Positions 41,118-62,675 of a DNA stretch of 64,000 nucleotides are shown here, in pieces. The position numbers were made by a program, and so were the translations under genes. The stretch lies in contig CAYGLK010000001.1 of the NCBI GenBank assembly GCA_964350985.1, positions 457,973 to 521,972 on the forward strand, in the 5' to 3' direction. This stretch comes from an uncultured Candidatus Saccharibacteria bacterium. Its GTDB lineage: Bacteria > Patescibacteriota > Minisyncoccia > Phycocordibacterales > UBA918. The notes beneath the pieces were generated by a model. It was not told the DNA's origin and did not search any database. It saw only the letters and a program-made list of their open reading frames with translations. Position 1 is the first letter of the stretch. Every line of letters begins with the position of its first letter.

Positions 41118-41280
41118 TGAGCTAGAAAAGACGCGGCCGGTGCGGCGGACTCATTGAGGGCTTTTGTGAGAATTCACAAAACAAAAGAACCAATGAGTGG
41201 ACAGCTCCTGTAAGGAGCCAACGAAGTCCACTTCACTACCAAATCTATATATACTTAGGTAAAACTTTATGGGAGATAGT

Positions 41281-41312
41281 TTTACGGGGACCAGTGCCGG
41301 AAAACTTAAATA
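41281..41312 (+). repeat. Second, internally deleted duplicate of the ftsZ tail region (ggggaccagtgccgg...aaacttaaataa)
   Basis: Shares gggaccagtgcc with the copy at 41070. Confidence 0.45.
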
Positions 41313-41425
41313 AACTGACTCTATTTGAAAAACAAAACCCTCAGTTGACTGGAGGGTTTTGTTTTAAAGACAGAACCGAAGATTGTGGTGGTGGTATAAT
41401 TACACAAGTTTAATAACAAATAATT

Positions 41426-42745
41426 ATGAATAAAATTTTTCTAAATACTAAAGTTGTAGTAGTCCTACTAGTCGTCTTAGTCGCTGGTTTAGTTAACAAC
41501 ACTGCAGAAGCAAAAGCTAATTTTAGCAACAAAGTCACTTCTTTAGAAAAATCGTATACTGAAGGTGATCAAATCTCTTTTAATATAACCGGAACAGACT
41601 CAGATAGGAAAAAACTGACTAAAGACCTTGGTTATCACGTTCAGTTTAATGTTGTCCGAAAAAATTCCAAAGACTCAAACGGTGTTGGTTTTAACGCTGA
41701 ATACAGCTATGAACTAAATCAATGGGTGGGAAAATTTCTTGCACCAGAAGTAGGAACTTACAAAATTGAAATTGTGCTTTATTGCGCTACGGAAAAATGT
41801 GACCGTAATAATTACTCAGATTCTCAGCAAGTTATTAAAAAATCCTTTAGTGTAAAAAAGTCTAAGTCTAAGAAATTTAAAAACTCTACCGTTCTTAACG
41901 AAGGATATGTAACTAACGATTTTGCCAGTGATCAAAATCCAGCTATAGCAGAGCTTGTAGACGGAAGCTTCGTTGTATATTACAACTCAAGCACTCCTGA
42001 AGGAACTAATGGAATATTCGTAACAACATCAAAAGATGGTAAAAAGTGGACAAAGCCAAAGTTCTTTTCAGACAGCTGGGGAAATCTTAATGCCATAGCA
42101 GATAGAAAATATAATTTATTACTTCAAACCGGCGCTGAAGGTGGATTGTCAATTATAAATAACAAGAAAAAAGAGAGATCAGTTAAACCTACTGTTGCCA
42201 ATGACAGCGTTGGTTCAATAATAAAAGCGAAGGATGGATACTACTACGTTAGCTACAGCTCGAACAATCCAACCAATGTATATTTAACTAGGACAAAAAA
42301 CTTAAAAAGCTGGTCAAAACCAATTAAAATTTCTTCTGGATCAGACTTTGAGTTTGATTCATCTCTAACCCAAATGAATGATGGTTCATTTTATGTAGCC
42401 TACAACAGCTACTCAGACAAAGGGGTGAGCATTAAATACTCAACAGATGGAAAAAAATGGAAATCGGAAAAGACATTCCTCACTAAAACTGATGCCCAAA
42501 GTGGAATCTCAATGGTAGTTGTAAATAGCAGACCGGTAGTCTTTTGGTCTTCAAATTACATTACATATTACAGTTACAAAACAGCAACTGGTTGGACGAC
42601 ACCTGAGGTAGCTTTGACGGGAACCCCTCTTGGTATCGATCCAATAGTAAGTAAAGACGGCACTATTATTGCAGTTTATGCGACAGAACAAAATAATCAA
42701 CGAGATATAAAGATTAAAAACCTAGGCACACTCAACATAAAATAG
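41426..42745 (+). CDS. Secreted BNR/Asp-box repeat protein (sialidase-like beta-propeller)
   Basis: 439 aa. Signal peptide, then repeated S-x-D-G-x-x-W motifs (SKDGKKWT, STDGKKWK). A terminator follows at 41335-41366. Confidence 0.5.
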   Translation: MNKIFLNTKVVVVLLVVLVAGLVNNTAEAKANFSNKVTSLEKSYTEGDQISFNITGTDSDRKKLTKDLGYHVQFNVVRKNSKDSNGVGFNAEYSYELNQWVGKFLAPEVGTYKIEIVLYCATEKCDRNNYSDSQQVIKKSFSVKKSKSKKFKNSTVLNEGYVTNDFASDQNPAIAELVDGSFVVYYNSSTPEGTNGIFVTTSKDGKKWTKPKFFSDSWGNLNAIADRKYNLLLQTGAEGGLSIINNKKKERSVKPTVANDSVGSIIKAKDGYYYVSYSSNNPTNVYLTRTKNLKSWSKPIKISSGSDFEFDSSLTQMNDGSFYVAYNSYSDKGVSIKYSTDGKKWKSEKTFLTKTDAQSGISMVVVNSRPVVFWSSNYITYYSYKTATGWTTPEVALTGTPLGIDPIVSKDGTIIAVYATEQNNQRDIKIKNLGTLNIK

Positions 42746-42794
42746 ATAAAAATATTACCCTTGCGTTAACCGGGAATAATTGAGGTCCTGGAAT

Positions 42795-42847
42795 GTTTTG
42801 TTTTTTACCCTTATGCGGTAAAATAGCACCACTAGAAAATAATTTTG
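42795..42847 (+). repeat. 53-bp direct repeat, copy 1, carrying a promoter-like TTTGTT..TAAAAT and ending in the TTG used as the CDPS start
   Basis: gttttgttttttacccttatgcggtaaaatagcaccactagaaaataattttg. Copy 2 at 44182-44234 has one mismatch. Confidence 0.7.
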
Positions 42848-43543
42848 AGAGATTTCGTGAGAATAGAAAATTATCTAAACACCGATAAGGACGATTTAAA
42901 ATCTAGAAAATTTAATATTTTTGTTGGAGTTAGCCTTGGAAGCAAGTATTTTTCAAAAGAAAGAATTAAGGATTATTTGCTGTGGGCCTTAGCGCATACA
43001 AAGGAAAAAGTTGCCGTTCTCATTCCAGACAAAATACATGCGGTAAACCATGAAGTGAGGAGCAGTTACTCCAAAGAGCGTGCAAAAAACCTATCGTTTA
43101 GAGAGGGTGAAGAAGTTAAAGAAATTGTCGAAACCATCTTGTCAGAAATTGAACCTGAGAAGCGTTCGCTTGTGAATATTTTAAAGTGGGAAAATATTGA
43201 GACGAAAGAACATAAATCTATAGTAAAGATTTTACACAAGGAATTTAAGAATAATATAAACTTTAGAAACTCAATCATCGAAATAGTGAAGGATAGTATG
43301 AAATCAAAGAAGTTGACCGACTCTGATTATGAAAGACTTGCTGTTTACCCTCTCGAAGAGTTACCTATGCTAATTAATGGAATTGTACATAATGAATTGA
43401 TGTATACTTTACTTCCGTATCCTGGAACATCTAAAATTGATTATCTGGCGATTGACTTACAGGAAGGATTGAGTTTTCCTGAAGTAACAAATAAAATAAA
43501 GACAGGGAGAAAACTTCATCTAATCGAAGCTTATGCAACATGA
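42845..43543 (+). CDS. Cyclodipeptide synthase (tRNA-dependent), XYP subfamily
   Basis: 232 aa. FVGVSLGSKYFS....LLWA aligns with AlbC LIGISAGNSYFS....LQWA and YvmC LVGISPFNSRFS, including the catalytic Ser. VYPLEELP...TLLPYPG aligns with YvmC EYVIAELP...TLLAYHR, covering the Y, E and YP positions. Position 40 is S rather than N, and YP replaces YH, which marks the XYP subfamily. The start is TTG (or the GTG five codons in). Confidence 0.7.
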   Translation: MRDFVRIENYLNTDKDDLKSRKFNIFVGVSLGSKYFSKERIKDYLLWALAHTKEKVAVLIPDKIHAVNHEVRSSYSKERAKNLSFREGEEVKEIVETILSEIEPEKRSLVNILKWENIETKEHKSIVKILHKEFKNNINFRNSIIEIVKDSMKSKKLTDSDYERLAVYPLEELPMLINGIVHNELMYTLLPYPGTSKIDYLAIDLQEGLSFPEVTNKIKTGRKLHLIEAYAT

Positions 43544-44091
43544 CCATGGAACACAGACCAAATAAATTTGGAGCAGAAAAATCTATTGAGAATGTAGATT
43601 TTCGAATCGTTGAAAAAAATGAACAAGTCAAAAAAAACTTAATGGATCTTTTACATGAATATCCAAACCATTTTATTCCTGGACTCTTTGAAAAAACAGC
43701 TGAAAAAGATTTTGATGCTTCCGATGTTATGTTGGCATACGATGGAGACACACCTGTTGGATGTCTTATGTTCAATAGGTCAACTAAAGAATTTAATTGG
43801 TTAGCAGTTACGCGAGATACAAAAATGCGTAGATCAGAAATTGCTAGGAGTCTTTTTGAAAGCTTTTATCCAACCATTGAATCAGGGACAAAAGTCGTCG
43901 CTTTTCCAAATACTGAAGATGCATCCATTCCAGGTCAACCAACCTTTTCCGGTCAGAATTTTGATGCTGCGAGAAAACTATACAGATCAATGGGTTGGGA
44001 TATGAGTGAAGAGAATAGAGTCGAAAATAAATATGGCGAAGGTGCCCACGTTTATAGAGTAGAATGGGTTCCAAACAAAAATCCTGAATAA
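43540..44091 (+). CDS. GNAT-like acetyltransferase, translationally coupled to the CDPS gene (ATGA overlap)
   Basis: 183 aa. ..VGCLMFNRSTKEFNWLAVTRDTKMRRSEIARSLFESF.. resembles the GNAT beta4-alpha3 core, but the Gly motif is atypical. Confidence 0.4.
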   Translation: MTMEHRPNKFGAEKSIENVDFRIVEKNEQVKKNLMDLLHEYPNHFIPGLFEKTAEKDFDASDVMLAYDGDTPVGCLMFNRSTKEFNWLAVTRDTKMRRSEIARSLFESFYPTIESGTKVVAFPNTEDASIPGQPTFSGQNFDAARKLYRSMGWDMSEENRVENKYGEGAHVYRVEWVPNKNPE

Positions 44092-44181
44092 CAATAGAAA
44101 CCCATTTTGTACTAAAATGACGTTGATGATTGGTTACTAAAAAGACTCTTACTTAAACAAAACCTTTCAGTTAACTGAAAG

Positions 44182-44234
44182 GTTTTGTTTTTTACCCTTA
44201 TGCGGTAAAATAGCACCACTACAAAATAATTTTG
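44182..44234 (+). repeat. 53-bp direct repeat, copy 2, immediately upstream of and overlapping the trxB start. A terminator hairpin lies at 44155-44181.
   Basis: gttttgttttttacccttatgcggtaaaatagcaccactacaaaataattttg. Confidence 0.7.
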
Positions 44235-45164
44235 CCTTTTATGTTTGAATTGACGATTATCGGTGGCGGACCAGCTGGAACAGCGGCCGGAGTCTACGCG
44301 TCTCGAAAACAACTAAAAACTCTCTTGGTAACCAAAGAATGGGGTGGCCAAAGTACTGTCTCTCCAGATATTCAAAACTGGATTGGTACCACCTCTATTG
44401 CTGGCGACAAATTAGCCTCTGACCTTAAAGGTCACCTAGAGGCCTATGCTGGTGATTACGTCACTGTTAAGGGTAATTCTTTAGTTACAACCATCACTAA
44501 GTCAGAAGCTGGCTTCTCAGTCACTCTAGACTCAGGTGAAACTTTCGAAACTAAAACAATCTTAGTTGCCAGCGGATCAAAGCGTCGCCAATTACCCGCT
44601 AAGAATGCAGACATTTTCGAACACAAAGGTCTAACCTACTGTGCTAGTTGCGATGGACCATTGTTTAGTGGACAAGATGTAGTTGTTATCGGTGGCGGTA
44701 ATGCTGCTTTTGAAACAGCTGCTCAGCTACTTGCCTACACTAAGAGTGTTACCTTGCTGCAACGCGGTGGTATCTACAAAGCTGATCCAGTAACGGTAGA
44801 GAAAGTACTCAGTCACCCAAACATGACTGGCGTACTAAATGCTCAAGTAACTGAAGTTTCTGGTGACAAATTTGTTTCTGGACTAACCTACTTAGACGGA
44901 CAAACAAATGAAAGTACGGAGATTAAAGCTACTGGTATATTTGTTGAGATCGGAATGATTCCAAACACTGACTACTTAAAAAACGTAGTTGAACTAGATC
45001 AGTACCAAAGAGTAGCGATTGACCCATGGTCTCAGAAGACAAACACTCCTGGTATCTGGGCAGCTGGTGATTGTACCAACGTGCTCTACCACCAAAATAA
45101 CATCGCTGCTGGCGATGCTGTACGGGCACTAGAAGACATCTACGTTACACTAAAGACTAAGTAA
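44232..45164 (+). CDS. trxB: Thioredoxin reductase
   Basis: 310 aa. FAD site IIGGGPAGTAAGVYA, redox CASCDG, NADPH site GGGNAAFE. The start is the TTG at 44232 or the ATG at 44241. Confidence 0.85.
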   Translation: MPFMFELTIIGGGPAGTAAGVYASRKQLKTLLVTKEWGGQSTVSPDIQNWIGTTSIAGDKLASDLKGHLEAYAGDYVTVKGNSLVTTITKSEAGFSVTLDSGETFETKTILVASGSKRRQLPAKNADIFEHKGLTYCASCDGPLFSGQDVVVIGGGNAAFETAAQLLAYTKSVTLLQRGGIYKADPVTVEKVLSHPNMTGVLNAQVTEVSGDKFVSGLTYLDGQTNESTEIKATGIFVEIGMIPNTDYLKNVVELDQYQRVAIDPWSQKTNTPGIWAAGDCTNVLYHQNNIAAGDAVRALEDIYVTLKTK

Positions 45165-45186
45165 TCGCTCAAATATTAAAATACGT

Positions 45187-45212
45187 AAAAGGCGCCCCTC
45201 CAGGCGCCTTTT
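45187..45212. terminator. Hairpin aaaaggcgcccctccaggcgcctttt after trxB
   Basis: Perfect GC stem. Confidence 0.65.
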
Positions 45213-45469
45213 ACTTTGTACAACGTAGAGTTTTGGCCTGCGCGCTTTGCCCTTAAAGAGCGTTGTATTAGAGATACATTACCACCGCGCAAACCTACAA
45301 ACAGCTTCTCATAGATTAGTAAGTAGAGTCAATCGGTTAATAAAAGCTTATTTACAGCCACACTGTGTATAAAGGTGTGTAAAAACCATGCATAACTGTG
45401 TGTAAAGGTTTTGTATAACTATGAGTAAAACTACTTGACTCGGTTTAGAAAATACTTTGAGATTTATGC

Positions 45470-46228
45470 TTATCCAGCAAAGAAAGTCCCCACGTAGTAA
45501 GCGATCAAAGCAGCTGCTACTCCAACAGTAACTACTTCTACCATTGCTGCCATCAGAGCTCCTCCTACCACTCGCCACTTTAGGAGACCAAGTAAGATCA
45601 AAGCGAAGAAAGTTCCGATCACTGAAAGTGTAAATACATTTGAAACCGTTCCCTCAGGAATAAAAATAAATGGTAGAAGTGGAATGACTCCAAAAACCAT
45701 GAAGGATAAGAAAGTAGCTGTTCCTGTCATGACTGGGTTTGATCCACGCGGATCAGCCATTTCCAACTTGTGGTTCATCATAAAGTCCACTAAGTACTCA
45801 TGGTTCTTTCCATAGATAGAAGCCAGTGTTTCAGCGTCTTCTGGAGTAAAGCCTTTTTCCATCATCAAAGCTACAGCAGCAGCTCGTTCCCCTGCTGGAT
45901 TATTTTTTAAATGTGCCTCTTCTTTCACTCTAGCTGCGTTATACAGATCCTTCTCTGACCGTACTGACAAGAAGTTTCCTAGACCCATAGAGGCAGCGTC
46001 AGCAAAAAGATTAGCCAAACCGAACAAAAGCACGACCACAAAAGTTAACTGTGTAGAGGTGTCGCTTGAGACTGCTGCACCGGCAAAACCAGCCACAACC
46101 GCAAAAGTAGTAATAATTCCATCAATTCCTCCGTAGATTACCTCTGTAAAATACTCTGCTAAAGGTGAAGTCTTCTTCACTTCCACTCCTTGATTGTTGG
46201 TTAAATTCATATGAAAAAAGTATAACAC
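45470..46228 (-). CDS. VIT1/CCC1-family membrane protein (putative Fe/Mn transporter)
   Basis: Hallmark YGGIDGIITTFAVVAG near the N-terminus and C-terminal TM helices. The start is probably the internal MNLTNN. Confidence 0.6.
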   Translation of the reverse strand: MLYFFHMNLTNNQGVEVKKTSPLAEYFTEVIYGGIDGIITTFAVVAGFAGAAVSSDTSTQLTFVVVLLFGLANLFADAASMGLGNFLSVRSEKDLYNAARVKEEAHLKNNPAGERAAAVALMMEKGFTPEDAETLASIYGKNHEYLVDFMMNHKLEMADPRGSNPVMTGTATFLSFMVFGVIPLLPFIFIPEGTVSNVFTLSVIGTFFALILLGLLKWRVVGGALMAAMVEVVTVGVAAALIAYYVGTFFAG

Positions 46229-46290
46229 GATATTAAAACCCTAGAAATTTTCCCTATTTTTGCTACTATAGTGGCCGTAGCGAAGATACT

Positions 46291-46362
46291 GGCCCTATCG
46301 TATAACGGCTAGTACACAGGATTCTCATTCCTGGAATCGGAGTTCGATTCTCCGTAGGGTCA
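46291..46362 (+). tRNA. tRNA-Glu (anticodon CTC)
   Basis: Acceptor GGCCCTA/TAGGGTC, anticodon stem CAGGA/TCCTG, loop TTCTCAT, T-arm GGAG-TTCGATT-CTCC. A terminator hairpin follows. Confidence 0.8.
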
Positions 46363-46586
46363 CGAGTACAAAAAAGCGCACCTTAGGGCGCCTTTTTTGT
46401 TCGTGATCCCGCAACTAAACAGTCTGGAGGAATGTTTACGTGAGAATCGAAAAACTTTTGAGATATTTCAGAAATGAAGTGAAAGATTATACTTTGTGAT
46501 TCGTGACCACAAAATAATATTGATTTCATAGTTTTAAAAAAGAGACCAGTGTCTTGCACCAGCCTCTTTTGTGGTTTGTGAAACTA

Positions 46587-47015
46587 TTACCATCCACTAT
46601 CATTTGCCGGCCCTTCTTTGAGACCGTGGTATATGAACCATAAGCTAGTACAAATGACAGGAATGCTCACAAGGTATGCCCAGAGAGTATTTTCTTGAAG
46701 TGCGTATTTCCCGGCAACTACGCCCCATACGAGACATGTGACAGAAACAGAAACAGTGAAGCCTTTGGCCAGTCCACCTGTAGGAACACGTCCGGTCATT
46801 TTTTCACCGACCAGCCAGTAGATTGAACAAAAAAGTATGAACGAAAACACGCTTCCTGCTATCCAGTCGTGAATCAATTCACGTGGAAGTACATAACCCG
46901 TACCGAGGCAGAACATTGCAGCAGCTAGTGTTAAACAAATAGATACGTTTCTGTCCTTTCTTTCCCAGCTACTTAAGTCTTTTTTCATGACATCGCCTCC
47001 TCTTAGTAAGAACAA
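46587..47015 (-). CDS. Hypothetical membrane protein
   Basis: 142 aa with four predicted TM helices. The likely start is MKKDLSSWERK. Confidence 0.4.
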   Translation of the reverse strand: MFLLRGGDVMKKDLSSWERKDRNVSICLTLAAAMFCLGTGYVLPRELIHDWIAGSVFSFILFCSIYWLVGEKMTGRVPTGGLAKGFTVSVSVTCLVWGVVAGKYALQENTLWAYLVSIPVICTSLWFIYHGLKEGPANDSGW

Positions 47016-47099
47016 ATAGTCTTAGCTATATTATCTTTTTGTATATAAATGTCAAAGCGACTCATTTTATTGATTCAATAAAAATTGAATTGAATAAAT

Positions 47100-47127
47100 G
47101 GTTCCAATTCGTACTACATAGGGTCAC
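47100..47127 (+). repeat. 28-nt box GGTTCCAATTCGTACTACATAGGGTCAC, copy 1. Its 3' half matches the tRNA-Glu 3' end (TAGGGTCAC). A perfect terminator hairpin follows at 47150-47190.
   Basis: Direct sequence identity with copies at 50565, 51241 and 51667 (the last is degenerate). Confidence 0.7.
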
Positions 47128-47199
47128 CAATTCGTGCTAGCACGAGAAGCATACAAAAATAGCTCCGAAAGGAGCTATTTTTGTATGCTTACTGCCAGA

Positions 47200-47781
47200 T
47201 TAGCCAACCTGTCTTATCCAGTCACGAGTTATGCTATGAATTCTACCTATTTCAATTTCAGGCAAAATCCCCGTATGCATTATTATATTTCTTGATAATT
47301 CAAGGTCGTTAAATCGAGAAGAAATCCAATGTTGATCAGGAAAAAGGTCTGAAAAATCTTCCCAATTATTCACAATGATTTGTGAAAGATTACCAAACAT
47401 CGTATATCCAATGAGAGAAGAGCTTCTTTGAGCATGGTATTTATTTTTCTCCTCTTTTGTTCTCAAATCATTTGCTGATTTTTTTACCCTTTCAGGGACA
47501 CAAATATCCCACCAAGCCTGCCCTTTTCTATCTGCAAGCCGATCTTCAATAAGGTCTCTTACCGCATTCTCTAGACAAAAGAAAACCTCATAAACATTTC
47601 CCATATTTTTCGCCTTGTTCAACAAAACTGGGCTAAAATCACTTTCTTCAATCGTAGCTAATTCAGTTTTATTCTCTATTCCAACTTCAATCCCTTCTTT
47701 TGCTAGAGACAATAGATCGTCTGTAGCCAAGATTCCGTTGAAAGCTAACTTTTTTAAAGATTTAATGTGTCTAGCTTCCAT
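47200..47781 (-). CDS. HEPN-domain protein (Rx4H motif SRNIIMH), Abi/Swt1-like putative RNase
   Basis: 193 aa. The C-terminal Rx4-6H motif is the HEPN hallmark. It is the second gene of a two-gene operon. Confidence 0.45.
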   Translation of the reverse strand: MEARHIKSLKKLAFNGILATDDLLSLAKEGIEVGIENKTELATIEESDFSPVLLNKAKNMGNVYEVFFCLENAVRDLIEDRLADRKGQAWWDICVPERVKKSANDLRTKEEKNKYHAQRSSSLIGYTMFGNLSQIIVNNWEDFSDLFPDQHWISSRFNDLELSRNIIMHTGILPEIEIGRIHSITRDWIRQVG

Positions 47782-47785
47782 ATAC

Positions 47786-48418
47786 CTAATCGACTAGATT
47801 ATCTCTAAGGCTTTTAAAAATCGCATTGTAGACACTAATATCAGTTGTTGCAGGCAGGTGTATTTCTATGTTGTGCTGAAAACTTATAGCTCTAGGCTCA
47901 TTCTGTAATTCGACCACTTCCTTAGTCGCAGGTTTTACGTCTGAAACCTTATCTGTGGTTTCTTTTGTAGAGATTTCTTTATTAGACAAACTCGGAGATT
48001 GTCCAAACTTAGCTAATGTAGTAAGTGTTTTGAAAGTTAGAAAATACCTAGCTACTGCCACTTCATCTTTTCCTGTTATTCTCGATATAGCTCCTTTTAT
48101 TTCATCATCCGTTTTTGTATAAATCTCAGTATCAATAATAAACAAATCTTTATAAAGATCTTTTATTTTTTCACCAAGAACAAATTTCCAGTCAGATGAA
48201 TCTCTGAGTCTGTCATAGTATTCAGTCGGAACACCATCCTCTGTCATAAAACCAAGTTTTTTTAAAAGTGGAATTATCGCTCTGTCATTTGTACTCGAGA
48301 ACCCTAATTGTTTAAGAAATTCATATGTAAATTTCGTAGGCTTTGCAGCAGCACGAATTTTACTAAAAATAGGTTCAATCTTATTATTAGTTAGTACGTA
48401 AGGATATGAATCAGCCAT
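47786..48418 (-). CDS. Hypothetical partner protein of the HEPN gene (N-terminal wHTH-like region, C-terminal domain)
   Basis: 210 aa. Its stop codon is 4 nt from the HEPN start. I recognise no family. Confidence 0.45.
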   Translation of the reverse strand: MADSYPYVLTNNKIEPIFSKIRAAAKPTKFTYEFLKQLGFSSTNDRAIIPLLKKLGFMTEDGVPTEYYDRLRDSSDWKFVLGEKIKDLYKDLFIIDTEIYTKTDDEIKGAISRITGKDEVAVARYFLTFKTLTTLAKFGQSPSLSNKEISTKETTDKVSDVKPATKEVVELQNEPRAISFQHNIEIHLPATTDISVYNAIFKSLRDNLVD

Positions 48419-48679
48419 AAGTTATAAAAGTTAATATTAAGATGTTTGACATATTATATTATAAAATGACAGATTTGACACACTTCATAAAAAAACACTT
48501 TGAAAAGCTCGGCGCACGAGAAGGGTCGTTAAGATTTCTGTGTCACTAGTCAAAATTGCCTTACAGGGCAATAAGTTGACGAGGTTCTATCTCGAGAAGG
48601 CTCACAAATTTTACAGTCTCATATTAAGCTACGTTTAAACAACTACAAAGGGACGTTGGAACCGTGGTAGAATTTTTGT

Positions 48680-49546
48680 ATGAAAATAGGAACATGGAAT
48701 TTAAAATTTCTTTTCGATGAAGGAACTCGGCTCTATTCTGGAGTTGAAACAGAATTTACAAAAGAGTTTGTTGAAAAACGATTTACATACTTTGCAGAAC
48801 AGTTTGATTTACTTGATTGTGATATTTTATTTTTGCAAGAAGTTGGAGACAAAAGTGCTTTAGAAAAAATAGTTGCTCAGACAAAAAATGATTATTCATA
48901 TTTTATTGCTAATCCAGATGCATACGGAACAGGAAATGCTGTTATTTATAAAAGTAACCTAAACTGCAAATGTGAATCTGTCTCTACGAATAGTACGGTG
49001 CCGGTATTTAATGAGGAAGATACTGACACTATTACTAACAGAATAAAATCCCGCAGAGACTACGTTAAACTTGAGACGACAGTAAATAATCAAGCGCTAG
49101 TACTAGTAGGGCTACACATTAAGGCACGATTTCTTGTATATAAAAATGGAAGTAGTTTTCCAAACGAAGAAGAAAAAGATTCTCAAGTTTTGGCTGCAGA
49201 TGGTGCAATACGTTCTGAGATATTTAGATTAAACCAAGCCAAGAAAGTTAGAGAAATTGCGAGCAATGTTTTAGGTAATGAAAATACTCACTTCATAGCT
49301 TTAGGAGATTTTAATGCTGAGCAAAATTCTGAAGTAGTAAAGATAATTCGGGGAGGGATTAAGGATAGACATGACACACTCAGACTGATAACTGAAGATT
49401 CAGCAATTGACCATATCTTTGTTTCTCAGTCACTGGAAGAGAAAGTGTCTAATATAGAAATACTAAATGAATTAAAAGCTTCTGACGGCGGTGCTGAAAT
49501 CGTTGAAAGTGACCACGCTCCCATAACATTTAAACTGCAGTTTTAG
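48680..49546 (+). CDS. Endonuclease/exonuclease/phosphatase (EEP) family protein
   Basis: 288 aa. MKIGTWNL, LQEV, GDFN and SDHAP motifs. Extended -10 TGgTAGAAT upstream. Confidence 0.7.
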   Translation: MKIGTWNLKFLFDEGTRLYSGVETEFTKEFVEKRFTYFAEQFDLLDCDILFLQEVGDKSALEKIVAQTKNDYSYFIANPDAYGTGNAVIYKSNLNCKCESVSTNSTVPVFNEEDTDTITNRIKSRRDYVKLETTVNNQALVLVGLHIKARFLVYKNGSSFPNEEEKDSQVLAADGAIRSEIFRLNQAKKVREIASNVLGNENTHFIALGDFNAEQNSEVVKIIRGGIKDRHDTLRLITEDSAIDHIFVSQSLEEKVSNIEILNELKASDGGAEIVESDHAPITFKLQF

Positions 49547-49672
49547 TCTTAATTCTTAATCTCAGCTCACCCTCTAGTTGCTTAACTATTTCGTTCCGAT
49601 TCCGTCTCAGTTAGATAACAACGACTTTTGAGATTAATTTAAAAGGATTATTTTTATTAACCAAGAAGATAC

Positions 49673-50545
49673 TTGGAACTTTTGTTATACTTGAGATATA
49701 TGGAATCTATTAATACAGAACCTGACCAAGAAATGGTACCTTCAGAACAGACCCAAATAATCTTGAATATACTTAAAGAGGTAGAGCAGATTGTCCTAAG
49801 ATACTTTAAAACTGGAGTCGGGGTTGAATATAAAAAAGATGCCTATGACCCAGTGACTATTGCAGACAAAGAAGCAGATAAACATATTAGAGAAGCAATT
49901 GCTCGGCAGTTTCCAGGGGACGCAATCTTATCAGAAGAAAGCGAAATAATTCCAGAAAACTTCTCTGGGCGAGTTTGGATGATTGATCCTTTAAATGGCA
50001 CAAAATCTTTTATTAAAGGCTCCGACACCTTTGCTGTGGTTATGGGATTAGTTGAAGACGGAGTGCCTGTTTTAGGATGCGTTAGTCTACCTGCTCAGAA
50101 GATAACGTTCCATGCCGAAAGAGGAGCTGGGTCATTTAAGGAAATATCAGGAAAAAGAACTCGATTACAAAGTAGTTTAGTTTCTGAAATTGAGCAAGCT
50201 AGACTTATCACTCGCGAACCCAGTGCAGAAATCAGACCTTTAGAGCAAAAAGTCAGCCAACTGCCCTTCCTTGAAACCTTAGAACAAGGAAGTGGAGCAA
50301 AACTATGCATGATAGCAAACGGTGAAGCAGAGGCACATATAAATACTAACTCTAGAGCTTCAAAATGGGACATTGCTGCACTACAGCTTATTTTGGAAGA
50401 AGCCGGAGGTAAAGTTACAGACTTAGACGGAAAACCAATAAATTACACAGAAGCGGAAGTCTTACTTACAAGAAGCTATGTGGCTTCGGCTAACTCTGAA
50501 CTACACTCTAAAATTATTGCAGGATTAAGAAACCTTGAGGTGTAA
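49673..50545 (+). CDS. Inositol monophosphatase / CysQ (3'(2'),5'-bisphosphate nucleotidase) family protein
   Basis: 290 aa. EE..E metal-binding region, WMIDPLNGT and a G..DTF-like motif. Confidence 0.65.
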   Translation: MELLLYLRYMESINTEPDQEMVPSEQTQIILNILKEVEQIVLRYFKTGVGVEYKKDAYDPVTIADKEADKHIREAIARQFPGDAILSEESEIIPENFSGRVWMIDPLNGTKSFIKGSDTFAVVMGLVEDGVPVLGCVSLPAQKITFHAERGAGSFKEISGKRTRLQSSLVSEIEQARLITREPSAEIRPLEQKVSQLPFLETLEQGSGAKLCMIANGEAEAHINTNSRASKWDIAALQLILEEAGGKVTDLDGKPINYTEAEVLLTRSYVASANSELHSKIIAGLRNLEV

Positions 50546-50564
50546 AACACTTGTTTTACTATCC

Positions 50565-50592
50565 GGTTCCAATTCGTACTACATAGGGTCAC
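50565..50592 (+). repeat. 28-nt tRNA-Glu-3'-like box, copy 2, followed by the hairpin aaagcaccctttgggtgcttttt
   Basis: Identical 28-mer. Confidence 0.7.
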
Positions 50593-50691
50593 AACATATT
50601 TTCTTAGTAAAAGCACCCTTTGGGTGTTTTTGCTTTTGAATATCCTGTGAGCTTACGAGAAAAGTGCATAGATTGACAAAGTGAATATTGT

Positions 50692-51105
50692 GTGACAATA
50701 TCTGAGATGGAACACCTTCACACAACCAACAAGAGGTCCTGTATGAACGTCCAAAAGATTGCCCGTTGGATCATTGTCACCGCATTGCTTTTTATGGGGT
50801 TGGCAGCTACTTTGCAATTTTTGATAAAACTTAGTGGAGAGACATTACCACTGAGTTTTACCGATCTGTGCCTATGGCTAATCATGTGTGGTGTCTGTCT
50901 CAAAGCCGCCCTGACACAACGAAAAGCCTGGGCAATAACCGGACTCCTGAGTATATTCCTTACTCTGGTCAAGAGTGTTGAACTTTCACTGTTCTACGTC
51001 GAAAACCACTCAATTTCATTGGTCATAACGCTTCTTGTGGCGCTACACTTGTCGACCATGGTAATTCCACAAAGTACTCGTGGTCAACGAGTGATTGCTC
51101 ACTAG
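50692..51105 (+). CDS. Hypothetical membrane protein (four TM helices)
   Basis: 137 aa. The likely start is the internal MNVQKIARWIIV. Confidence 0.4.
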   Translation: MTISEMEHLHTTNKRSCMNVQKIARWIIVTALLFMGLAATLQFLIKLSGETLPLSFTDLCLWLIMCGVCLKAALTQRKAWAITGLLSIFLTLVKSVELSLFYVENHSISLVITLLVALHLSTMVIPQSTRGQRVIAH

Positions 51106-51240
51106 AAGCCCGAGGACATAATTCAAATAGCGACACTGCACCAAGGTGCAAAGAAATGCCCCGCTTTCTTGCGGGGCAACTTTTTTATTAAATTTTAGTT
51201 AAAAGCAAAACTTTTAATATTGAAATCGAATTGATTAAAA

Positions 51241-51268
51241 GGTTCCAATTCGTACTACATAGGGTCAC
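51241..51268 (+). repeat. 28-nt tRNA-Glu-3'-like box, copy 3. It is followed by the same trailer and terminator as the real tRNA-Glu (gagtacaaaaaagagcgcctttgggcgctttttt).
   Basis: Over 45 nt match the region downstream of tRNA-Glu. Confidence 0.7.
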
Positions 51269-51338
51269 GAGTACAAAAAAGAGCGCCTTTGGGCGCTTTT
51301 TTGTTTGTAATTTTAAAATAATTTAGTATTTAAATTAA

Positions 51339-51596
51339 TTACGTTAGAGACACATACCAAGAAATCACAGTATAACCAAAGTAAGAACAAAGAACGATTC
51401 CAGCTATGGCTAATATATAGTGACCTTTAGCCATGTTTTGACCCTTACCTTTATACAATGCTATAACTCCCGACAAGAAACCAACTGGTGCAAGAAAAAT
51501 AATGAAGCCAGGAGCTAAAAAACACGCAACTCCGCTGACAACAGATGTAATAGCATACTCTTTACTATTCTGCTTTTTTAATTTAAAACTATCCAT
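51339..51596 (-). CDS. Hypothetical small membrane protein (85 aa, two TM helices)
   Basis: Hydrophobicity pattern only. Confidence 0.35.
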   Translation of the reverse strand: MDSFKLKKQNSKEYAITSVVSGVACFLAPGFIIFLAPVGFLSGVIALYKGKGQNMAKGHYILAIAGIVLCSYFGYTVISWYVSLT

Positions 51597-51666
51597 AAAA
51601 ATCTAGTTTACTCTTATAAAGTTTCTTTCTAAAGTATGGTTTAGTTTAGTAACTTAGTCAACGAAC

Positions 51667-51689
51667 ACAATCGTACTACATAGGCTCAC
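51667..51689 (+). repeat. Degenerate copy 4 of the box (acaatcgtactacataggctcac), plus a terminator hairpin
   Basis: 18 of 23 positions match the core. Confidence 0.5.
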
Positions 51690-51751
51690 AAAATTAAAAA
51701 GACTAAGATATAAAATCTTGGTCTTTTTAATTTTGTGAAAAAATACTAATC

Positions 51752-52624
51752 CTAAATCCCCGCCTCAATATAGTAATCTTCTGAACCATACAATGTGTAT
51801 CCGTCTTCTGCTTCAGCTGCAAAGACATTTACTGGCTTTCCTATATGTGACTCCAGTCCGCCAATACCATCCTCGAATCTCACCTCACCAACAGTATCTC
51901 TAGACCAGCCTCGTAAGAGTATAATTGTCTTTCCTTCTACTGTAGCGCTACAAATACCGTCTGCAAAACAACTAGTATTGACGGCTTCTAGAGTCCCTCC
52001 GAAAGCTACTGTCCCTTCAGGTAACTTTGAATCATCTTTATCTACTGCTTCTTTACTAACTACTTCTACAAGACGATACTCATAGACACTGGCGTCTGCT
52101 GGTACTGATTCACGCTCTGTTCTCTCAACAATCAATTCATATGAATAGCCAGACTCAAATTCAAAACCATCAATAGAGTCGTAAAAGTATTCACCGTTTA
52201 CTATTAGGCATTCCATCTCACCTTCTCCAGTACAAGGCTTTCGTTCTGGTTCAATATTAAAGGTAAGTAGATTTTCGTCATTCTCACCCACTGGCATAGC
52301 AGCTTCAAAAACCGCCTCGCCTCTTACTTCTAACATTGCTTCTCCTTGATGTTCCCAAAATACAATAGATTCATCATCGTTAGTATATTTTGCTCCAGAT
52401 GCAGATATAGAGCGTTCTAGTTCATATTGAACGCCACTTAGACTAATCTGAGCGTAGTCAGCACCATCACTATATTGAACAGTAAATTGTCGATCATCCT
52501 CAATAAATGTTACTGGTTCAGTCACATAAACAACTTCCTTTTCGGTAGTACTATTGTTAGCAAATAATGCGTAGCTAACCAAGACAACAAAAACAAGCGC
52601 TAAAATCAAAAACAATTTTTTCAT
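51752..52624 (-). CDS. Secreted MliC-like lysozyme-inhibitor domain protein with a C-terminal DUF4377-like domain
   Basis: 290 aa. Signal peptide; SASGAKY...VFWEHQGEAMLEV matches the MliC motifs SxSGAxY and KGxEA. The second half has C..GEGEMECL..NGEYFYD. Confidence 0.55.
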   Translation of the reverse strand: MKKLFLILALVFVVLVSYALFANNSTTEKEVVYVTEPVTFIEDDRQFTVQYSDGADYAQISLSGVQYELERSISASGAKYTNDDESIVFWEHQGEAMLEVRGEAVFEAAMPVGENDENLLTFNIEPERKPCTGEGEMECLIVNGEYFYDSIDGFEFESGYSYELIVERTERESVPADASVYEYRLVEVVSKEAVDKDDSKLPEGTVAFGGTLEAVNTSCFADGICSATVEGKTIILLRGWSRDTVGEVRFEDGIGGLESHIGKPVNVFAAEAEDGYTLYGSEDYYIEAGI

Positions 52625-52735
52625 AGATATATTGCTACTTTTAATATACTAAGGTTATCAAATCTACTGGATAATGTAAAAAGGACCTGATTTTTTAAGA
52701 TCGCCATCTCCCTCTTTATCTGCTAGGATGCCAAT

Positions 52736-53308
52736 ATGAAAATAACGTCAGCAAAGTTTGTTCGAGGAGTTAAGGGCGATAACGGTATTCTAGAAAATGG
52801 AATTCCTCAGATTGCTTTTATTGGCCGTTCTAATGTTGGAAAATCTAGTCTCCTCAATTCACTTACTAACTCAAAAAATCTAGCAATCACTAGTAAGACG
52901 CCAGGACGAACTAAAGAGATCAATGTCTTTTCAATCAATGACACCCATTACTTCATGGACCTACCTGGATACGGTTTTGCTAAGACCGAAATAAAAATCT
53001 GGGAGAAACTCGGAAAGCTTATCTATTGGTACCTCTTTGATTCAAAACACAATCCCAGAGTCGTACTATTGGTTGATGCTGAAGTAGGGCCAACACACTC
53101 TGACTTAGAGATGCTTGGAGAACTAGAGAGAGCCGGCAAAGATATTGTAGTTGTCTTAAATAAAGTTGATAAAATCAAAAAATCACAGTACTTAAACCGC
53201 TTAAAAGACCTTGGCAAACAACTTCGTGGACACAAACTCTTCCCCTACTCTTCCAAAACTAAGTTAGGAGTAGAAGAACTAACTAATGAACTTTTAAAGA
53301 AAAATTAG
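52736..53308 (+). CDS. engB: Ribosome biogenesis GTPase EngB/YsxC
   Basis: 190 aa. G1 GRSNVGKSS, DLPGYGFA and NKVDK motifs. Confidence 0.85.
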   Translation: MKITSAKFVRGVKGDNGILENGIPQIAFIGRSNVGKSSLLNSLTNSKNLAITSKTPGRTKEINVFSINDTHYFMDLPGYGFAKTEIKIWEKLGKLIYWYLFDSKHNPRVVLLVDAEVGPTHSDLEMLGELERAGKDIVVVLNKVDKIKKSQYLNRLKDLGKQLRGHKLFPYSSKTKLGVEELTNELLKKN

Positions 53309-53320
53309 TTAATCTCTTCT

Positions 53321-56300
53321 TTACAAAATCCTCACCGCTCCATTGTCAGCATCGACCTCGACCCTATCACCGTTTTTCAAAACCTGGGTTGCTTTTTCTG
53401 TTCCAATTACACAAGGGATATTGAGTTCACGAGCAACAATAGCAGCATGACATGTCACTCCTCCTCTGTTGGTAATTATTGCACCAGCCTGGGACATTAG
53501 TGGTAAAAATGTCGGCGAGGTCATATCACAAACCAAAACATCACCCTTACTGAATTTATCTGAAGCTGGATCTGTAACAACAGAAACTGTACCACTGTAC
53601 TTTCCTAAACAAGCTGTTTGTCCATTAAGATCACCTTTTACTTCAGATGCATTAATACTTGGTATTTGTTGTGTGATTAGACGATTATAGTCAATAAACC
53701 ACAGCCCTTGATCTGTATCCACTGTTTCAAAATAGCCATTTAAGTAGTCAAAACTAAATGTTCCATTTAACTGTTTTGAAATCTCAGCTTTTTGCGTCTC
53801 GTTAACTTTCAAATAACTAACCACTTTTTTAAGATGCTCCTCTGCTTCTTTATTAGCAGGTACAAGTTTCCATTCGTTGAAATCATACTCGAAAGAAATC
53901 GGTGTGTTTTCTAAGTAAAATCCTTGGGTTAATTTTTCATGAGAGTCAGCAATAACTTCGCCGCGAATACCTGATTCACTGACTACAAATATGGTCGACC
54001 AATAACTGATGTCTGCATCAGGAACAAAATCCGCTCGATACTTTGAAGGATCGACTTCTTGTTCAACTAACCAAGTTTCGACCACTTCTCGCACAGTCTT
54101 ACCTCTCATTCTTAGCTTCTTCAAATTATTATCCAAAGGGATCAAACGTAGGGCACATTTTTCACTACCATGGTTTTCTAAATATGATTTAAATTCATCT
54201 GATCTATCAACTACATCACTTAAACTAAACTGGGTTGGTCTATCGAATGGTATCCCAGTAATTTCATTCAAAACAGCTAGCCGTTCTCTCTTCTCATTAT
54301 CCTCATCCCGATGTTTTGCAGCGTCTTCATGACTCATATTTCCAAGCCATTCCGTCAAGGAAATTTGCTTATCAAAAAATTCTTCTTTAGGTGCAGTCAC
54401 ATCAGTAGGCAATGAATCATTCTTCTCCAAAATCCTCACCACTCCCTTATCTGCATCGACCTCGACTAAGTCTCCGTCTTTTAATATTTCAGTCGCTACT
54501 TTGGTTCCTACTACACAAGGTTTTCTAAATTCTCGGGCAACAATTGCAGCGTGACAAATAACTCCACCTTCGTCAGTAACAAAAGCTGCGGCTTTTCTCA
54601 TAGCGTCAATATATGCAGGAGTGGTCATTCCAGCAACCAAAATTTCACCCTCCTTAAGCAACTTACTATCTTCTTGAGTCTGGATGATTCTCACCTTACC
54701 TTGTACCACACCAGCAAAAGCAACCTTTCCTTCTAAGAGGTTACTCTTCTGAACTTCAGTTTTTTCCAACCCCTGAGCCATGGCAAATTCTTCAACCTGT
54801 TTTTTACCAAAGAAAAACTCATAACGGTCACCTTGTGAAAGTATGGCAAAGTGAGTTTTACGTTCTTCCAATTCTTCGACACTTGGCAAAGTATCTGCCT
54901 CAGCCCACTGATAAAATTCCTTTTCAGTGAGCCGTAACAATGAATCGTCTAAACCTAGGGCTTTCAAAGTCTCACGCAAGGCCCAATTTGCTCTAACTAA
55001 AGCTGTTTTTCCTTCGTCATGTAAATAAGAAAGCTTCTGTACAATACTGGCTAACCATTGTTCATATTCCGAGAATTGAGTTTGGGTAAAATCAGAACTT
55101 TCGTTAATTTCCAAAACATTGCCTTGCAAAATTCTCTTGTAATCAGCAGCATTCCAACTCTTAGAGACATATTCTGAATGTATGAAACCATACTCTTTCG
55201 CTAGATTTTCTGCTTGTTCATTCAACCACTCAGCTGATTTATTTGTAATTTCATTTTGAATTAAATAGATTGCTTGAGATTCTCTAGCAATCAAAGTTCG
55301 GCTATGGGGACGTAACAATTCTTCTTTTATGGGTAAAAAACGATCCCCCAAAGACTCTTTAAGAAACTCCAACGGCACCTTACTACAGCTTAGTCCGAAT
55401 AACATATAACCCATGTTTCTTCGGAAAGTTTTATATAAAAACAAAGCGTCTGTTTTTGTTTCTCCGGGGACAATTTTAAGATCAGTTTTGATTTGAGTGA
55501 TTACTTTTTCAATGTTTTCTTCCAATTCCTTTGATACATTTTTACAATACTCATGTAGGTTGGTACGTTCATTTATTGGAGCGTTCTTGCCGAAAAAAAT
55601 TGGCAACACGACATCATTCTTGAGTATTAAATCATTTCTAGAGCCAAAGTAGACTGGACCAATATTTATTTTTTCTCTACGAGCACTGATGTTGGCATCC
55701 CAATGGAGTAAATCTTGAGTACGTGCTGCCATTTTTTGCCAAGCTACTTCAGTAGTTGAATTTGTTGCTATTTTGTCTGCCTCTTTATTAGTAGGTTTAG
55801 TTACTGAAAGTGTCGTAATCGGGCGACTTTGGACAATATAAAAAGCATTGTTTTCAAAAGCCCACTCTATATCACAAGGAAATCCATAATGATCTTCAAT
55901 AGTGACAATAATATTCGCCAGTTCAGATATTTGTTCTTTATCTAAAACTTGTTGATCAGCTTGCTCTGGTGAAAGTTCGATCCATTCATTAAAACCGTGT
56001 TCTGCATCCAACTTAGTTGAGCGATATAAGGCCTTGTTTTGGCTACTAACGTTAATATCTAAAATATCTCTTGGTTCTTTGGTAACAACATAAGCATCTG
56101 GAGTAACAGAACCAGAAACGATTGCTTCGCCAAGACCAAATCCGGCTTCAATGATTATTTGATTATAATCTTCAGTTACCGGATGTACAGAAAAAGCGAT
56201 TCCAGATTTTTCGGAATTGACCATTTTTTGAACCACAACCGCCACTGAAATATGTGTCGTGTTTAATCCCTTTTCAAAACGATAGAAAATAGCTCTTGGA

Positions 56301-56770: not shown

Positions 56771-56845
56771 TATATATCAATGAGATCTGAAAAGAAATTA
56801 GTCGTACAATAGACCTGCTTAAACCTATGTTGTAGACTTAATAAT

Positions 56846-57586: not shown

Positions 57587-57616
57587 TTTTTAAATCGTTA
57601 AAAGAAGAAGGGGACA

Positions 57617-58615: not shown

Positions 58616-58696
58616 AGTATATTACCGTATTCTTGTCATTGGATCACTTTTTTCCGAGTGTTATAATTGAGATATTACTATTGAATATTTAAATAT

Positions 58697-59050
58697 ATGA
58701 CAACACAAGAAATTGCTGATCGTTTAGTAGCTTTAAATCGTGAAAATAATCACGAACTAGCTTACAAAGAACTTTACTCTGAAGATATTTTAAGTATTGA
58801 AAACTGGGACGGAGAAAGAACTGAACATAAAGGGATGGATGCTATTAAGAAAAAAGGTGAAGGCTGGTACGCTAGTGTAGCTGAAATACACGAGACAACC
58901 TGCAGTGAACCGCTAGTAGCCGACAACAGCTTTGCAGTTACTTTTTTCATGGATATTACCTACAAAGACGCTGGCCGACAAAGCATGACAGAACTCGCTG
59001 TCTATACTGTTAAAGACGGAAAGATTGTAGAGGAGGAATTTAAAGGCTAA
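58697..59050 (+). CDS. SnoaL/NTF2-like small protein
   Basis: 117 aa. Pattern and size resemble SnoaL-like domains. Confidence 0.4.
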   Translation: MTTQEIADRLVALNRENNHELAYKELYSEDILSIENWDGERTEHKGMDAIKKKGEGWYASVAEIHETTCSEPLVADNSFAVTFFMDITYKDAGRQSMTELAVYTVKDGKIVEEEFKG

Positions 59051-59098
59051 GGATATAAAACGAAAAACCGCTTGGATTTTATCCAAGCGGTTTTTTGT

Positions 59099-62277: not shown

Positions 62278-62284
62278 AAAATTC

Positions 62285-62665: not shown

Positions 62666-62675
62666 TATGCTATAA

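Follow-up and report, generated by a model that had tools for sequence, protein, structure and literature searches.

In Dehalococcoides, the ssrA-specific genomic islands (ssrA-GI) lie in tandem downstream of ssrA, share a 20-bp repeat and carry a serine recombinase of about 540 aa on the reverse strand beside attL (2011, PMC3146451). About half of these islands are without an integration module and were read as cis-mobilizable elements (CIMEs) acquired by accretion, and the region is hypervariable between strains (PMC3146451). Streptococcal CIMEs have lost integration and transfer genes and kept attL and attR, and their tandem arrays result from integration of a new element beside a resident one, at the 3' terminus of genes for tRNAs or other products (PMC5704250). 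In the streamlined genome of Prochlorococcus, tycheposons form tRNA-adjacent islands in which newer integrations push older ones outward; the islands hold scattered partial-tRNA remnants, degraded integrases and cargo for defence and niche functions, 910 of 937 tycheposons use tyrosine recombinases and a minority large serine recombinases (LSRs), and the flanking repeats are partial tRNAs (bioRxiv 10.1101/2020.12.28.424599). We analyzed an array of small gene islets directly 3' of tRNA-Glu in an uncultured Candidatus Saccharibacteria bacterium, within a stretch of 64,000 nucleotides of contig CAYGLK010000001.1 (assembly GCA_964350985.1, positions 457,973 to 521,972), in the following called the window. 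The islets are delimited by four copies of a 28-nt repeat, the box. We consider it likely that the boxes are attR-type scars of LSR-driven integrative elements which target the 3' end of tRNA-Glu in Paceibacteria (Patescibacteria, candidate phyla radiation, CPR).

The ssrA-GI family is the closest precedent, with CIME accretion and the tycheposons as functional analogues. As in the ssrA-GI, tandem units are found at the 3' end of one tRNA-like gene together with short repeats and a reverse-strand LSR, the latter here in relatives of the window. Unlike in the ssrA-GI, where the target is transfer-messenger RNA, the target here is tRNA-Glu and the host belongs to the CPR; the repeat is an element-borne mimic sharing as little as TCAC with the target and not a duplicate of the target's 3' end; attP lies inside the integrase open reading frame (ORF), with integration swapping the protein tail; and neither a second small recombinase of DsiA type nor a ParB or Mom module is present. 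The islets measure 0.4–3.5 kb, whereas ssrA-GI islands are within the size range of typical phage genomes (PMC3146451). With streptococcal CIME accretion the locus shares att-flanked units without integration genes, arranged in tandem at a tRNA 3' end. Streptococcal integrative conjugative and integrative mobilizable elements, in contrast, are conjugative and mostly use tyrosine integrases, while here an LSR and no conjugation genes are involved and cis-mobilization is putative. Unlike in the tycheposons, the repeat is a fragment of the integrase ORF and the elements are much smaller.

Further systems share single traits with the locus. SCCmec elements, which are discussed in PMC3146451, are integrated by the LSRs CcrAB at the 3' end of one conserved gene and form composite or tandem arrays, with recombinase-less pseudo-SCC units between repeats; the target, however, is the protein-coding orfX/rlmH, integration requires two recombinases and cassette sizes are far greater. 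Like integron cassettes, the units are small, carry mostly one gene, have a recombination site at their end and are lined up at one attachment point. Unlike in integrons there is no IntI, no attI/Pc and no folded attC palindrome, and the units have their own promoters and terminators and lie in either orientation. In SSV1 attP lies within int, which is split on integration, and in BPs-like mycobacteriophages integration truncates the repressor and thereby removes a C-terminal tag. Here, too, attP lies in a coding gene and integration alters a protein, but SSV1 and the BPs-like phages use tyrosine integrases, while in the present case a serine integrase exchanges no more than its C-terminal tail, for one encoded antisense to the tRNA, with a putative functional effect. 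We found no description of this box and LSR family in the literature searched, which is absence of evidence only. The locus is a case of genomic-island building of a known kind in an unusual form, combining a CPR host, tRNA-Glu, a repeat derived from an integrase ORF, tail exchange and tiny integrase-less units.

The sequence GGTTCCAATTCGTACTACATAGGGTCAC occurs three times in the window, exactly and on the plus strand, starting at 47100, 50565 and 51241; shuffled sequence gave no match to the 28-nt box. A degenerate fourth copy, CAATCGTACTACATAGGCTCAC, ends at 51689 and differs from the box by one deleted T and one G>C exchange; a 14-nt core, TCGTACTACATAGG, is common to box 4 and the exact boxes. 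This agrees with the initial annotation, which had described four copies with the last one degenerate. A weak core match at 36808 on the minus strand has two mismatches, lies within a coding region and looks like chance. The attachment target, tRNA-Glu(CTC) at 46291–46363 on the plus strand, is intact according to ARAGORN and Rfam and represents the left half of attB. Its 3' end, TAGGGTCAC, is identical to the final 9 nt of the box. Placed in register, box and tRNA-Glu match at 17 of 21 positions, and their alignment includes one indel (TTCG-TACTACATAGGGTCAC versus TTCGATTCTCCGTAGGGTCAC), so that the likeness to the tRNA 3' end reported before is borne out, and the segment resembled is that from the T-loop to the 3' side of the acceptor stem. 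The idea of a pseudo-tRNA consisting of T-arm and acceptor was dropped, since the bases cannot pair into a T-stem and neither ARAGORN nor Rfam reports a tRNA there.

A VIT-family transporter gene flanks tRNA-Glu and assigns the window to the Paceibacteria/Kaiserbacteria/Nomurabacteria group of Patescibacteria, in which the adjacency of the two genes is widely kept. DNA homology with seven relatives (L008, L009, L012, L015, L017, L032, L060) stops exactly at 46363, the last base of the tRNA, and resumes in three of them (L009, L015, L032) near AhpC, GlmS, tRNA-Val and TsaD, at about 59,100–63,800 of the window. The contigs of the five closest relatives all stop within a few hundred bases of tRNA-Glu, two of them (L004, L006) exactly at ...GGTCAC. 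The exact end of synteny together with these contig ends marks the position directly 3' of tRNA-Glu as a hypervariable insertion point, in agreement with the tandem site-specific integration at tRNA-Glu that had been put forward from the window alone. In one relative with 76% VIT identity (L007, JGI 3300039159) ARAGORN finds no tRNA-Glu in the first 267 nt beside VIT; what is present resembles the 5' half of a tRNA that continues into unrelated DNA, and the tRNA may be disrupted or contain an intron.

Four relatives carry LSRs at the tRNA-Glu locus (L047, L022, L017 and L008; Pfam Resolvase and Recombinase, with or without a zinc ribbon). Another, L084, has a split LSR in an element whose far end lies beyond the contig. 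The LSR genes of L047, L022 and L017 are convergent with tRNA-Glu and extend into it, so that their last 12–20 codons are antisense to the tRNA (for example ...SLVTPRRIELRFPE before the stop). The islands of L047 and L022 end in box-like arms, GGTTCCAA.... The L047 element of 5 kb encodes the LSR, a rolling-circle Rep, a methyltransferase and a His-Me endonuclease and ends in GGTTCCAAATCGCTCCCCGTAGGATCAC; beyond it lies a further integrase-less islet of 1 kb ending in GGTTCCAAAACGTACTACTTAGGGTCCC. The L022 island ends in GGTTCCAACTCTGTCCCATTTGGGTCAC, which is followed by a class-B-like trailer (trailer denotes the sequence directly 3' of a tRNA or box; classes A to D are described below). Decay of LSR genes is also visible, as 5'-truncated remnants of 95–156 aa which still end in ...CDPTGNRTPV..CPSR, that is, in tRNA-antisense tails. 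Judged from these sequences, the integrase behind the array would be an LSR and not of the tyrosine type usual for tRNA islands. In the closest full-length relative, L008 (DAOLBU010000003.1, reverse complement of 10911–20700; 84% VIT identity), tRNA-Glu is directly followed by a defence island which exceeds 9 kb and runs past the end of the locus analyzed. It encodes an XRE regulator, an EcoRI-type methyltransferase, GmrSD/HNH, a protein of 852 aa, a ParB-like methylase and an LSR of a different subfamily, the last at 5 kb from the tRNA.

The relation between box and integrase became apparent from the LSR tails. We surveyed the 120 best of more than 2000 homologues (protein hits P0121–P0240; query L022 LSR). 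At least 91 of the 120 have tails encoded antisense to tRNAs, the IEL/IEP types to Glu-like T-arms and the GFEP types to other tRNAs. Another 9–11 of the 120, with lengths of 525–555 aa, show a native tail of the form ...LV(T/A)x(V/I)(G/R)x(S/N)WN(Q/R)(L/I)(V/I)..L..W..FG. Its motif WN(Q/R)(L/I)(V/I) matches the antisense translation of the box, in which GTG ACC CTA TGT AGT ACG AAT TGG AAC C is read as V T L C S T N W N. Box 2 (50565–50592, plus strand) extends this match upstream: together with the preceding 18 nt (50547–50592) its antisense reads VTLCSTNWNRIVKQV, giving ...NWNRIVKQV, to be compared with the native tails of P0229 (...NWNRIVQHL) and P0221, which suggests remnant integrase-tail coding. 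This upstream flank of box 2 recurs in L081 and L075, and the 18 nt 5' of box 1 and box 3 are 93% identical to each other.

Two contigs contain the box within an LSR gene. L083 (Logan SRR29078211) is apparently circular, with 6216 bp and a 30-nt terminal repeat, and encodes a long-tail LSR. In the orientation of the window the 3' end of its LSR ORF reads GGTTCCAATCTCGACTAATATGGGTCAC/CAATTTAGA..., a box homologue with 20 of 28 identical positions and the same start and end; the tail DNA is also given as GGTTCCAATCTCGACTAATATGGGTCAC/CAATTTAGATTT..., the box homologue immediately followed by the antisense of ...NKSKLV. The box homologue of L083 is thus attP, located within the integrase ORF. L083 also encodes an 809-aa Z1-domain protein and small ORFs and is a candidate free form of the integrative elements. 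In L078 an ORF with 44% identity (E = 5e-26) to residues 433–531 of the L017 LSR, its C-terminal region, reads through a box identical to that of the window at 27 of 28 positions (...LLF/VTLSSTNWNLLHK..., continuing to the stop). This fragment is of the L017 type and was missed by phmmer with L047- and L008-type LSRs; antisense translation found it. The attP of L083 and the read-through in L078 together indicate that the box has two identities, being both the attP P arm and an orphaned piece of LSR coding sequence from the 3' end of the gene. Box 1 (47100–47127, plus strand) is assigned as an attR-type scar carrying this P arm by its homology to the L083 attP and to the box in the L078 LSR ORF, box 3 (51241–51268, plus strand) is an exact 28-mer match, and box 4 (51663–51689, plus strand), recognized by the core match, is presumably the oldest scar. 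Since the box lies inside an LSR ORF, the semi-conserved sequence upstream of boxes is explained as remnant coding sequence. A reading of the conserved TTG...TACAATCC 5' of boxes as a small-RNA promoter was dropped: the spacing is unfit for sigma-70, and the remnant integrase-tail codons (RIVKQV) account for the conservation. A palindromic serine-integrase site formed by box and trailer was likewise rejected, because the weak GTACT-N13-AGTAC symmetry occurs at class-A junctions only and is not general.

From these data we propose the following course of events. In the free circular element, attP lies inside the 3' end of the integrase ORF. Its P arm of about 28 nt, the box, encodes in antisense a part of the native tail (...VT-xxxx-NWN-Q/R-L/I-V...) and at the same time mimics the T-loop-to-acceptor segment of tRNA-Glu. 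Strand exchange would take place within or just after the shared ...GGGTCAC/TCAC, at a predicted crossover dinucleotide, and the tRNA stays intact with only its downstream flank exchanged. The integrase gene then converges on the tRNA beside attL, with a new tail antisense to the tRNA, while the box moves to the far end of the element (attR), where it abuts the displaced former trailer. Integration thus replaces the native C-terminus of the integrase by one encoded antisense to the tRNA. At least four such events at the same locus, in a presumed order, would have stacked the four units of the window by accretion, and all four units would have lost the integrase gene or never had one; their arrival would be due to LSR action and not to later reshuffling. 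What the sequences show directly is that the box is homologous to attP in LSR ORFs and linked to tRNA-Glu, that synteny breaks off exactly, that other genomes have the same trailers and that LSR genes decay in relatives.

In order to see how far boxes are tied to tRNA-Glu, sites were scanned with a 9-mer and a position-weight matrix; a stricter test (12 nt, at most one mismatch) misses boxes. In 978 kb of related loci, both strands included, every box-like site detected by the position-weight matrix lies 3' of tRNA-Glu and has the same orientation; shuffled sequence gave none. Exact 19–20-nt box patterns matched no genome, metagenome or viral contig. A degenerate pattern with 21 specified bases matched 18 metagenome contigs and no viral contig. 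Across the metagenome contigs the 28 nt of the box are nearly invariant while the trailers vary, and several boxes are followed by LSR 3' remnants of about 10 codons. Five of the 18 contigs have a tRNA in view, and in each case it is tRNA-Glu on the same strand, 0.5–2 kb upstream of the box, with an islet of one or two small genes and no integrase between them. Distances of 480–1960 bp with single small genes were found in L067, L074, L079, L080 and L081, and tandem boxes in two metagenome contigs, L070 and L079. The initial annotation had named boxes at terminators unrelated to tRNA-Glu as the observation that would turn the box into a generic terminator-associated repeat; all sites in the 978 kb and in the five contigs with a tRNA in view are downstream of tRNA-Glu, an outcome in favor of att remnants and against a generic terminator repeat.

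In three genomes (L067, L081, L039) the resident tRNA ends in GGGATCAC, and the box still ends in AGGGTCAC. As the end of the box differs from that of the resident tRNA, the box is not a duplicate of the latter, but carried by the element. By sequence, it seems to need to share only about TCAC with its target. This bears on a classical tyrosine-integrase island with displaced, mutated duplicates of the tRNA-Glu 3' end, and equally on local duplications of the tRNA end without any mobile element. Such an origin would fit the last 9 nt of the box, which equal the tRNA 3' end, the repeated trailer after copy 3, and the prevalence of tyrosine integrases among known tRNA islands, as stated in the Islander and tycheposon reports. 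It leaves the 19 non-tRNA nucleotides of the box, conserved across distant genomes, without explanation, and duplication cannot account for the three genomes in which box and resident tRNA end differ. No tyrosine recombinase was found near tRNA-Glu in roughly 60 related loci with an XerD probe, which is a weak test, whereas LSRs are present in four relatives. An Islander-type combination of a tyrosine integrase and a fragment identical to the 3' part of the tRNA was not found with this weak probe either. We regard both variants as highly improbable. Of the serial att-site regeneration suggested earlier, the att-type scars stand, with the correction that the box is the attP arm of the element and not a regenerated copy of the tRNA 3' end.

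The trailers behave accordingly in comparison between genomes. The class-A module following tRNA-Glu (46364–46510, plus strand) is homologous from base +1 to trailers of relatives. It consists, in this order, of a terminator hairpin (46371–46396) whose stem reaches into the tRNA 3' end, GTTCGTGATCC, a degenerate piece resembling the tRNA 3' end in inverted orientation, ACGTGAGAATCGAA, and another inverted core, GATTCGTGACCAC (46497–46509). Class A follows tRNA-Glu in L003, L031, L023, L013 and L067 and boxes in L071, L081 and L039, and at least 12 genomes share it. The trailer of box 3 is a class-A copy (51269–51310, plus strand; terminator 51277–51302) which is decayed past the hairpin. Over 48 nt it is 88% identical to the tRNA trailer of the window, as expected from the earlier remark that copy 3 reproduces trailer and terminator of the tRNA, and it scores 60 against the L003 tRNA trailer (shuffled maximum 23). 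The class-B trailer after box 2 (50593–50645, plus strand; terminator hairpin at about 50611–50630) represents a native-type downstream flank of tRNA-Glu (B') and can be aligned, starting at +1, to the sequences 3' of tRNA-Glu in L005 (score 56) and L046 (score 42), against a shuffled maximum of 23. The class-C trailer after box 1 (47128–47190, plus strand; CAATTCGTGCTAGCACGAGAAGC...) contains a perfect 20-bp hairpin (47147–47190). This type is found directly 3' of tRNA-Glu in L079 and resembles the LSR-antisense P' arms of L018, L022 and L065, while L010 and L016 match the hairpin only; from this resemblance it is probably a degenerate remnant of the integrase 3' end (P' arm) which serves as terminator for the convergent HEPN operon. 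Class D after box 4 is a hairpin with 24-bp arms (51686–51738, plus strand), a bidirectional terminator for the convergent MliC/DUF4377 gene (51752–52624, minus strand) next to the last islet. It had no convincing match among the tRNA-Glu trailers of other genomes and is possibly the original downstream flank of this lineage. That sequence classes following boxes here directly follow tRNA-Glu in other genomes is the behavior expected of att junctions.

Further observations concern the class-A module itself. In the window and in L003, L013, L023, L031, L036, L039, L067, L071 and L081 it comprises the terminator, GTTCGTGAYCCYACGAGTA, a second hairpin and the inverted tRNA-3'-like GGGAATCGAAC; the stem sequence of the second hairpin varies between genomes and its pairing is retained. 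L013 (reverse complement of 12209–12500) and L036 (reverse complement of 8163–8450) contain a second copy, 17–19 nt long, of their own tRNA-Glu 3' end 200–260 nt downstream. The two share the same two trailer types in swapped order, as if a non-coding unit of about 200 nt had been exchanged by site-specific recombination.

As had been reported, a hairpin with T-run is found after all four boxes, and also after tRNA-Glu, according to a terminator scan and an inverted-repeat search: the consensus terminator scan flags hairpins 3' of the tRNA, box 2 and box 3, and the inverted-repeat search gave the 20-bp stem after box 1 and the 24-bp stem after box 4. Box plus hairpin could therefore be a host module, namely an insulator between transcription units or, by mimicry of a tRNA 3' end, a signal for processing by RNase P/Z, as the initial annotation had offered for choice. 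Besides the regular presence of a terminator-like hairpin, the resemblance of the box to the T-loop/acceptor 3' segment would suit such a function, and tRNA 3' end and class-A trailer fold into a long stable stem (-46.8 kcal/mol, z = -4.45). However, boxes are confined to positions 3' of tRNA-Glu, while the many other terminators of the window and of the related loci have none, and both box and upstream flank are accounted for by integrase coding and attP. The trailers and hairpins after boxes are mutually unrelated, and three of the four hairpins act as terminator for a convergent gene on the opposite strand. An insulator or processing module is thus hardly credible, and we favor the reading of the boxes as LSR att scars.

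We then considered what the scars enclose. The boxes divide 46364–51689 into four islets, E1 to E4, of 764, 3465, 676 and 421 bp, each bounded on the left by the tRNA end or a box and on the right by another box. E1 (46364–47127) comprises the class-A trailer, a gene for a 133-aa membrane protein with its own promoter and no Pfam family match (46587–46988, minus strand) and box 1; the same architecture of A trailer, single minus-strand gene and box is found in L067. E2 (47128–50592; 32–35% GC) contains four genes and box 2. The genes for HEPN_Swt1 (47200–47781) and DUF5343 (47786–48418) are adjacent on the minus strand and correspond to PDC-M34B (HEPN) and PDC-M34A (DUF5343) of PADLOC; the two genes at 47200–48418 gave matches to PDLC04589 (1.5e-70) and PDLC04592 (5.3e-67). 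By these matches the pair is assigned to the PADLOC candidate defence system PDC-M34. They are followed on the plus strand by an EEP-family nuclease/phosphatase (48680–49546) and an inositol-monophosphatase/CysQ-like gene (49700–50545), both assigned by Pfam. E3 (50593–51268) consists of the B trailer, a promoter, a gene for a 120-aa membrane protein (50743–51105, plus strand), a terminator (51157–51178) and box 3, and E4 (51269–51689) of the A trailer, a gene for an 85-aa DUF4190-like membrane protein (51339–51596, minus strand) and the degenerate box 4. The EEP nuclease, the CysQ-like gene and small membrane proteins, of which there are three, had already been recognized from the sequence and are confirmed; the supposed HEPN pair proved to be DUF5343 plus HEPN_Swt1. 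Islet cargo was compared across genomes and none was shared.

Neither a recombinase, or recognizable fragment of one, nor transfer genes were detected in 46364–51689 or the rest of the window, and the earlier statement that there is no integrase thus extends to all 64 kb. Measured against the described systems, the locus has att sites of ssrA-GI type, with a 28-nt box, a shared core down to TCAC, an intact tRNA and homology to the L083 attP. An LSR beside attL is absent from the window, which holds derivatives and not complete members of such a family. CIME-like traits are present, as the units are flanked by att sites and are without their own integration and transfer genes. Hints that a unit may be excised or mobilized along with a functional neighbor are limited to the breaks of contigs at the tRNA end and at box 2. 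Integron traits were not observed: the window has no IntI, the box no attC-like dyad, and the hairpins after boxes are unrelated terminators. An assembly of the same organism (Logan ERR3534985) covers 44192–47150, 47130–50590 and 50564–61724 of the window with three contigs (L001, L063, L002) at 100% identity. E2 is a separate contig which overlaps the next essentially by box 2, a 28-nt repeat shorter than k = 31. The population may include variants with and without E2; the split is suggestive only, as the overlaps are not k-1 and contigs break elsewhere too.

Several points weigh against an array of LSR elements that simply decayed. With no recombinase in the window, the action of an LSR on this array is deduced from site homology. 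E2, with 3.5 kb and an LSR-antisense-like class-C start, is about one LSR gene short of the 5–6-kb elements of L047 and L083 and fits integrase loss. Class-A and class-B trailers, however, start exactly at +1 and resemble native tRNA flanks, and since random deletion of an integrase gene would not restore +1 trailers, decayed full elements are insufficient for E1, E3 and E4. The suggestion of decayed islets without integrase is supported by LSR decay in relatives. Among box-bounded units, integrase-less mini-islets exceed LSR-bearing ones by about 17 to 2. Three boxes of the window are 100% identical although their cargo is unrelated, which could reflect recent events, selection or gene conversion. 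Canonical attL and attR sites of LSRs are poor substrates for further integration, a point against the growth of arrays at one tRNA. The survey of boxes in this organism covers the 64-kb window, and copies elsewhere in the genome are possible. As to their origin, mini-islets may be non-autonomous cassettes moved in trans, may have used box-trailer junctions as pseudo-attB, or may stem from shuffling by composite excision.

The first of these origins can be stated more sharply: the mini-islets, each consisting of trailer, one gene and box, would never have carried an integrase and would be moved in trans by LSR elements, making tRNA-Glu an integron-like platform. This keeps the att and LSR basis of the proposal above and differs only in the origin and present mobility of the islets. 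The same architecture occurs with unrelated cargo in many genomes (L067, L074, L079, L080, L081, and in tandem in L070 and L079), with constant ends, the class-A module on the left and the box with remnant tail codons on the right, around the variable cargo. The identity of the three window boxes and the 17-to-2 excess just mentioned point in the same direction. On the other hand, neither circular cassette junctions nor an identical cassette in two genomes were found, the coding origin of the box could explain its conservation, class-A and class-B trailers are also native tRNA flanks in genomes without a nearby box, and LSR remnants at several junctions show that decay happens. We therefore consider trans-mobilized cassettes a possible but rather unlikely origin. 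Slightly more doubtful still is the combined idea that tRNA-Glu serves as a serine-integrase cassette platform on which exchange of the native WNQLV tail switches activity, stability or directionality of the enzyme; tail exchange on integration is in any case a candidate regulatory switch.

The reading of the boxes as LSR scars has consequences beyond this locus. How CPR/Patescibacteria, with their minimal genomes, acquire genes is poorly understood; here a mechanism defined by sequence is suggested, with an LSR family of more than 2000 homologues docking on tRNA ends. tRNA-Glu would be a hot spot where lineages exchange genes for defence (PDC-M34, restriction-modification systems, GmrSD) and for small proteins of the envelope. 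The box can be used as a marker to delimit islets in fragmented metagenome-assembled genomes and would explain assembly breaks at tRNA-Glu. For the discovery of serine-integrase tools, the family offers attP/attB pairs which should be readable from sequence, as box plus integrase 3' end versus tRNA 3' end plus trailer.

Outside the array, pilin-like small membrane proteins are encoded among housekeeping genes at 12386–13303, 26260–26754 and 27584–28081, all on the minus strand. Only the first of the three was checked with Pfam and is T4SS-pilin-like (T4SS_pilin, 4.2e-06). A cluster of four tRNAs (Cys, Leu, Leu, Lys) is followed by ORFs of 285 and 342 aa without Pfam family (21130–22339 and 24318–26176). 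Upstream of tRNA-Glu, a low-GC stretch (32–35%) at 41200–44200 encodes a GH43/BNR-like secreted protein (41426–42745), a cyclodipeptide-synthase-like protein (42845–43543; Pfam CDPS, 2.4e-15) and a GNAT-like protein (43540–44091), and is possibly another acquired block.

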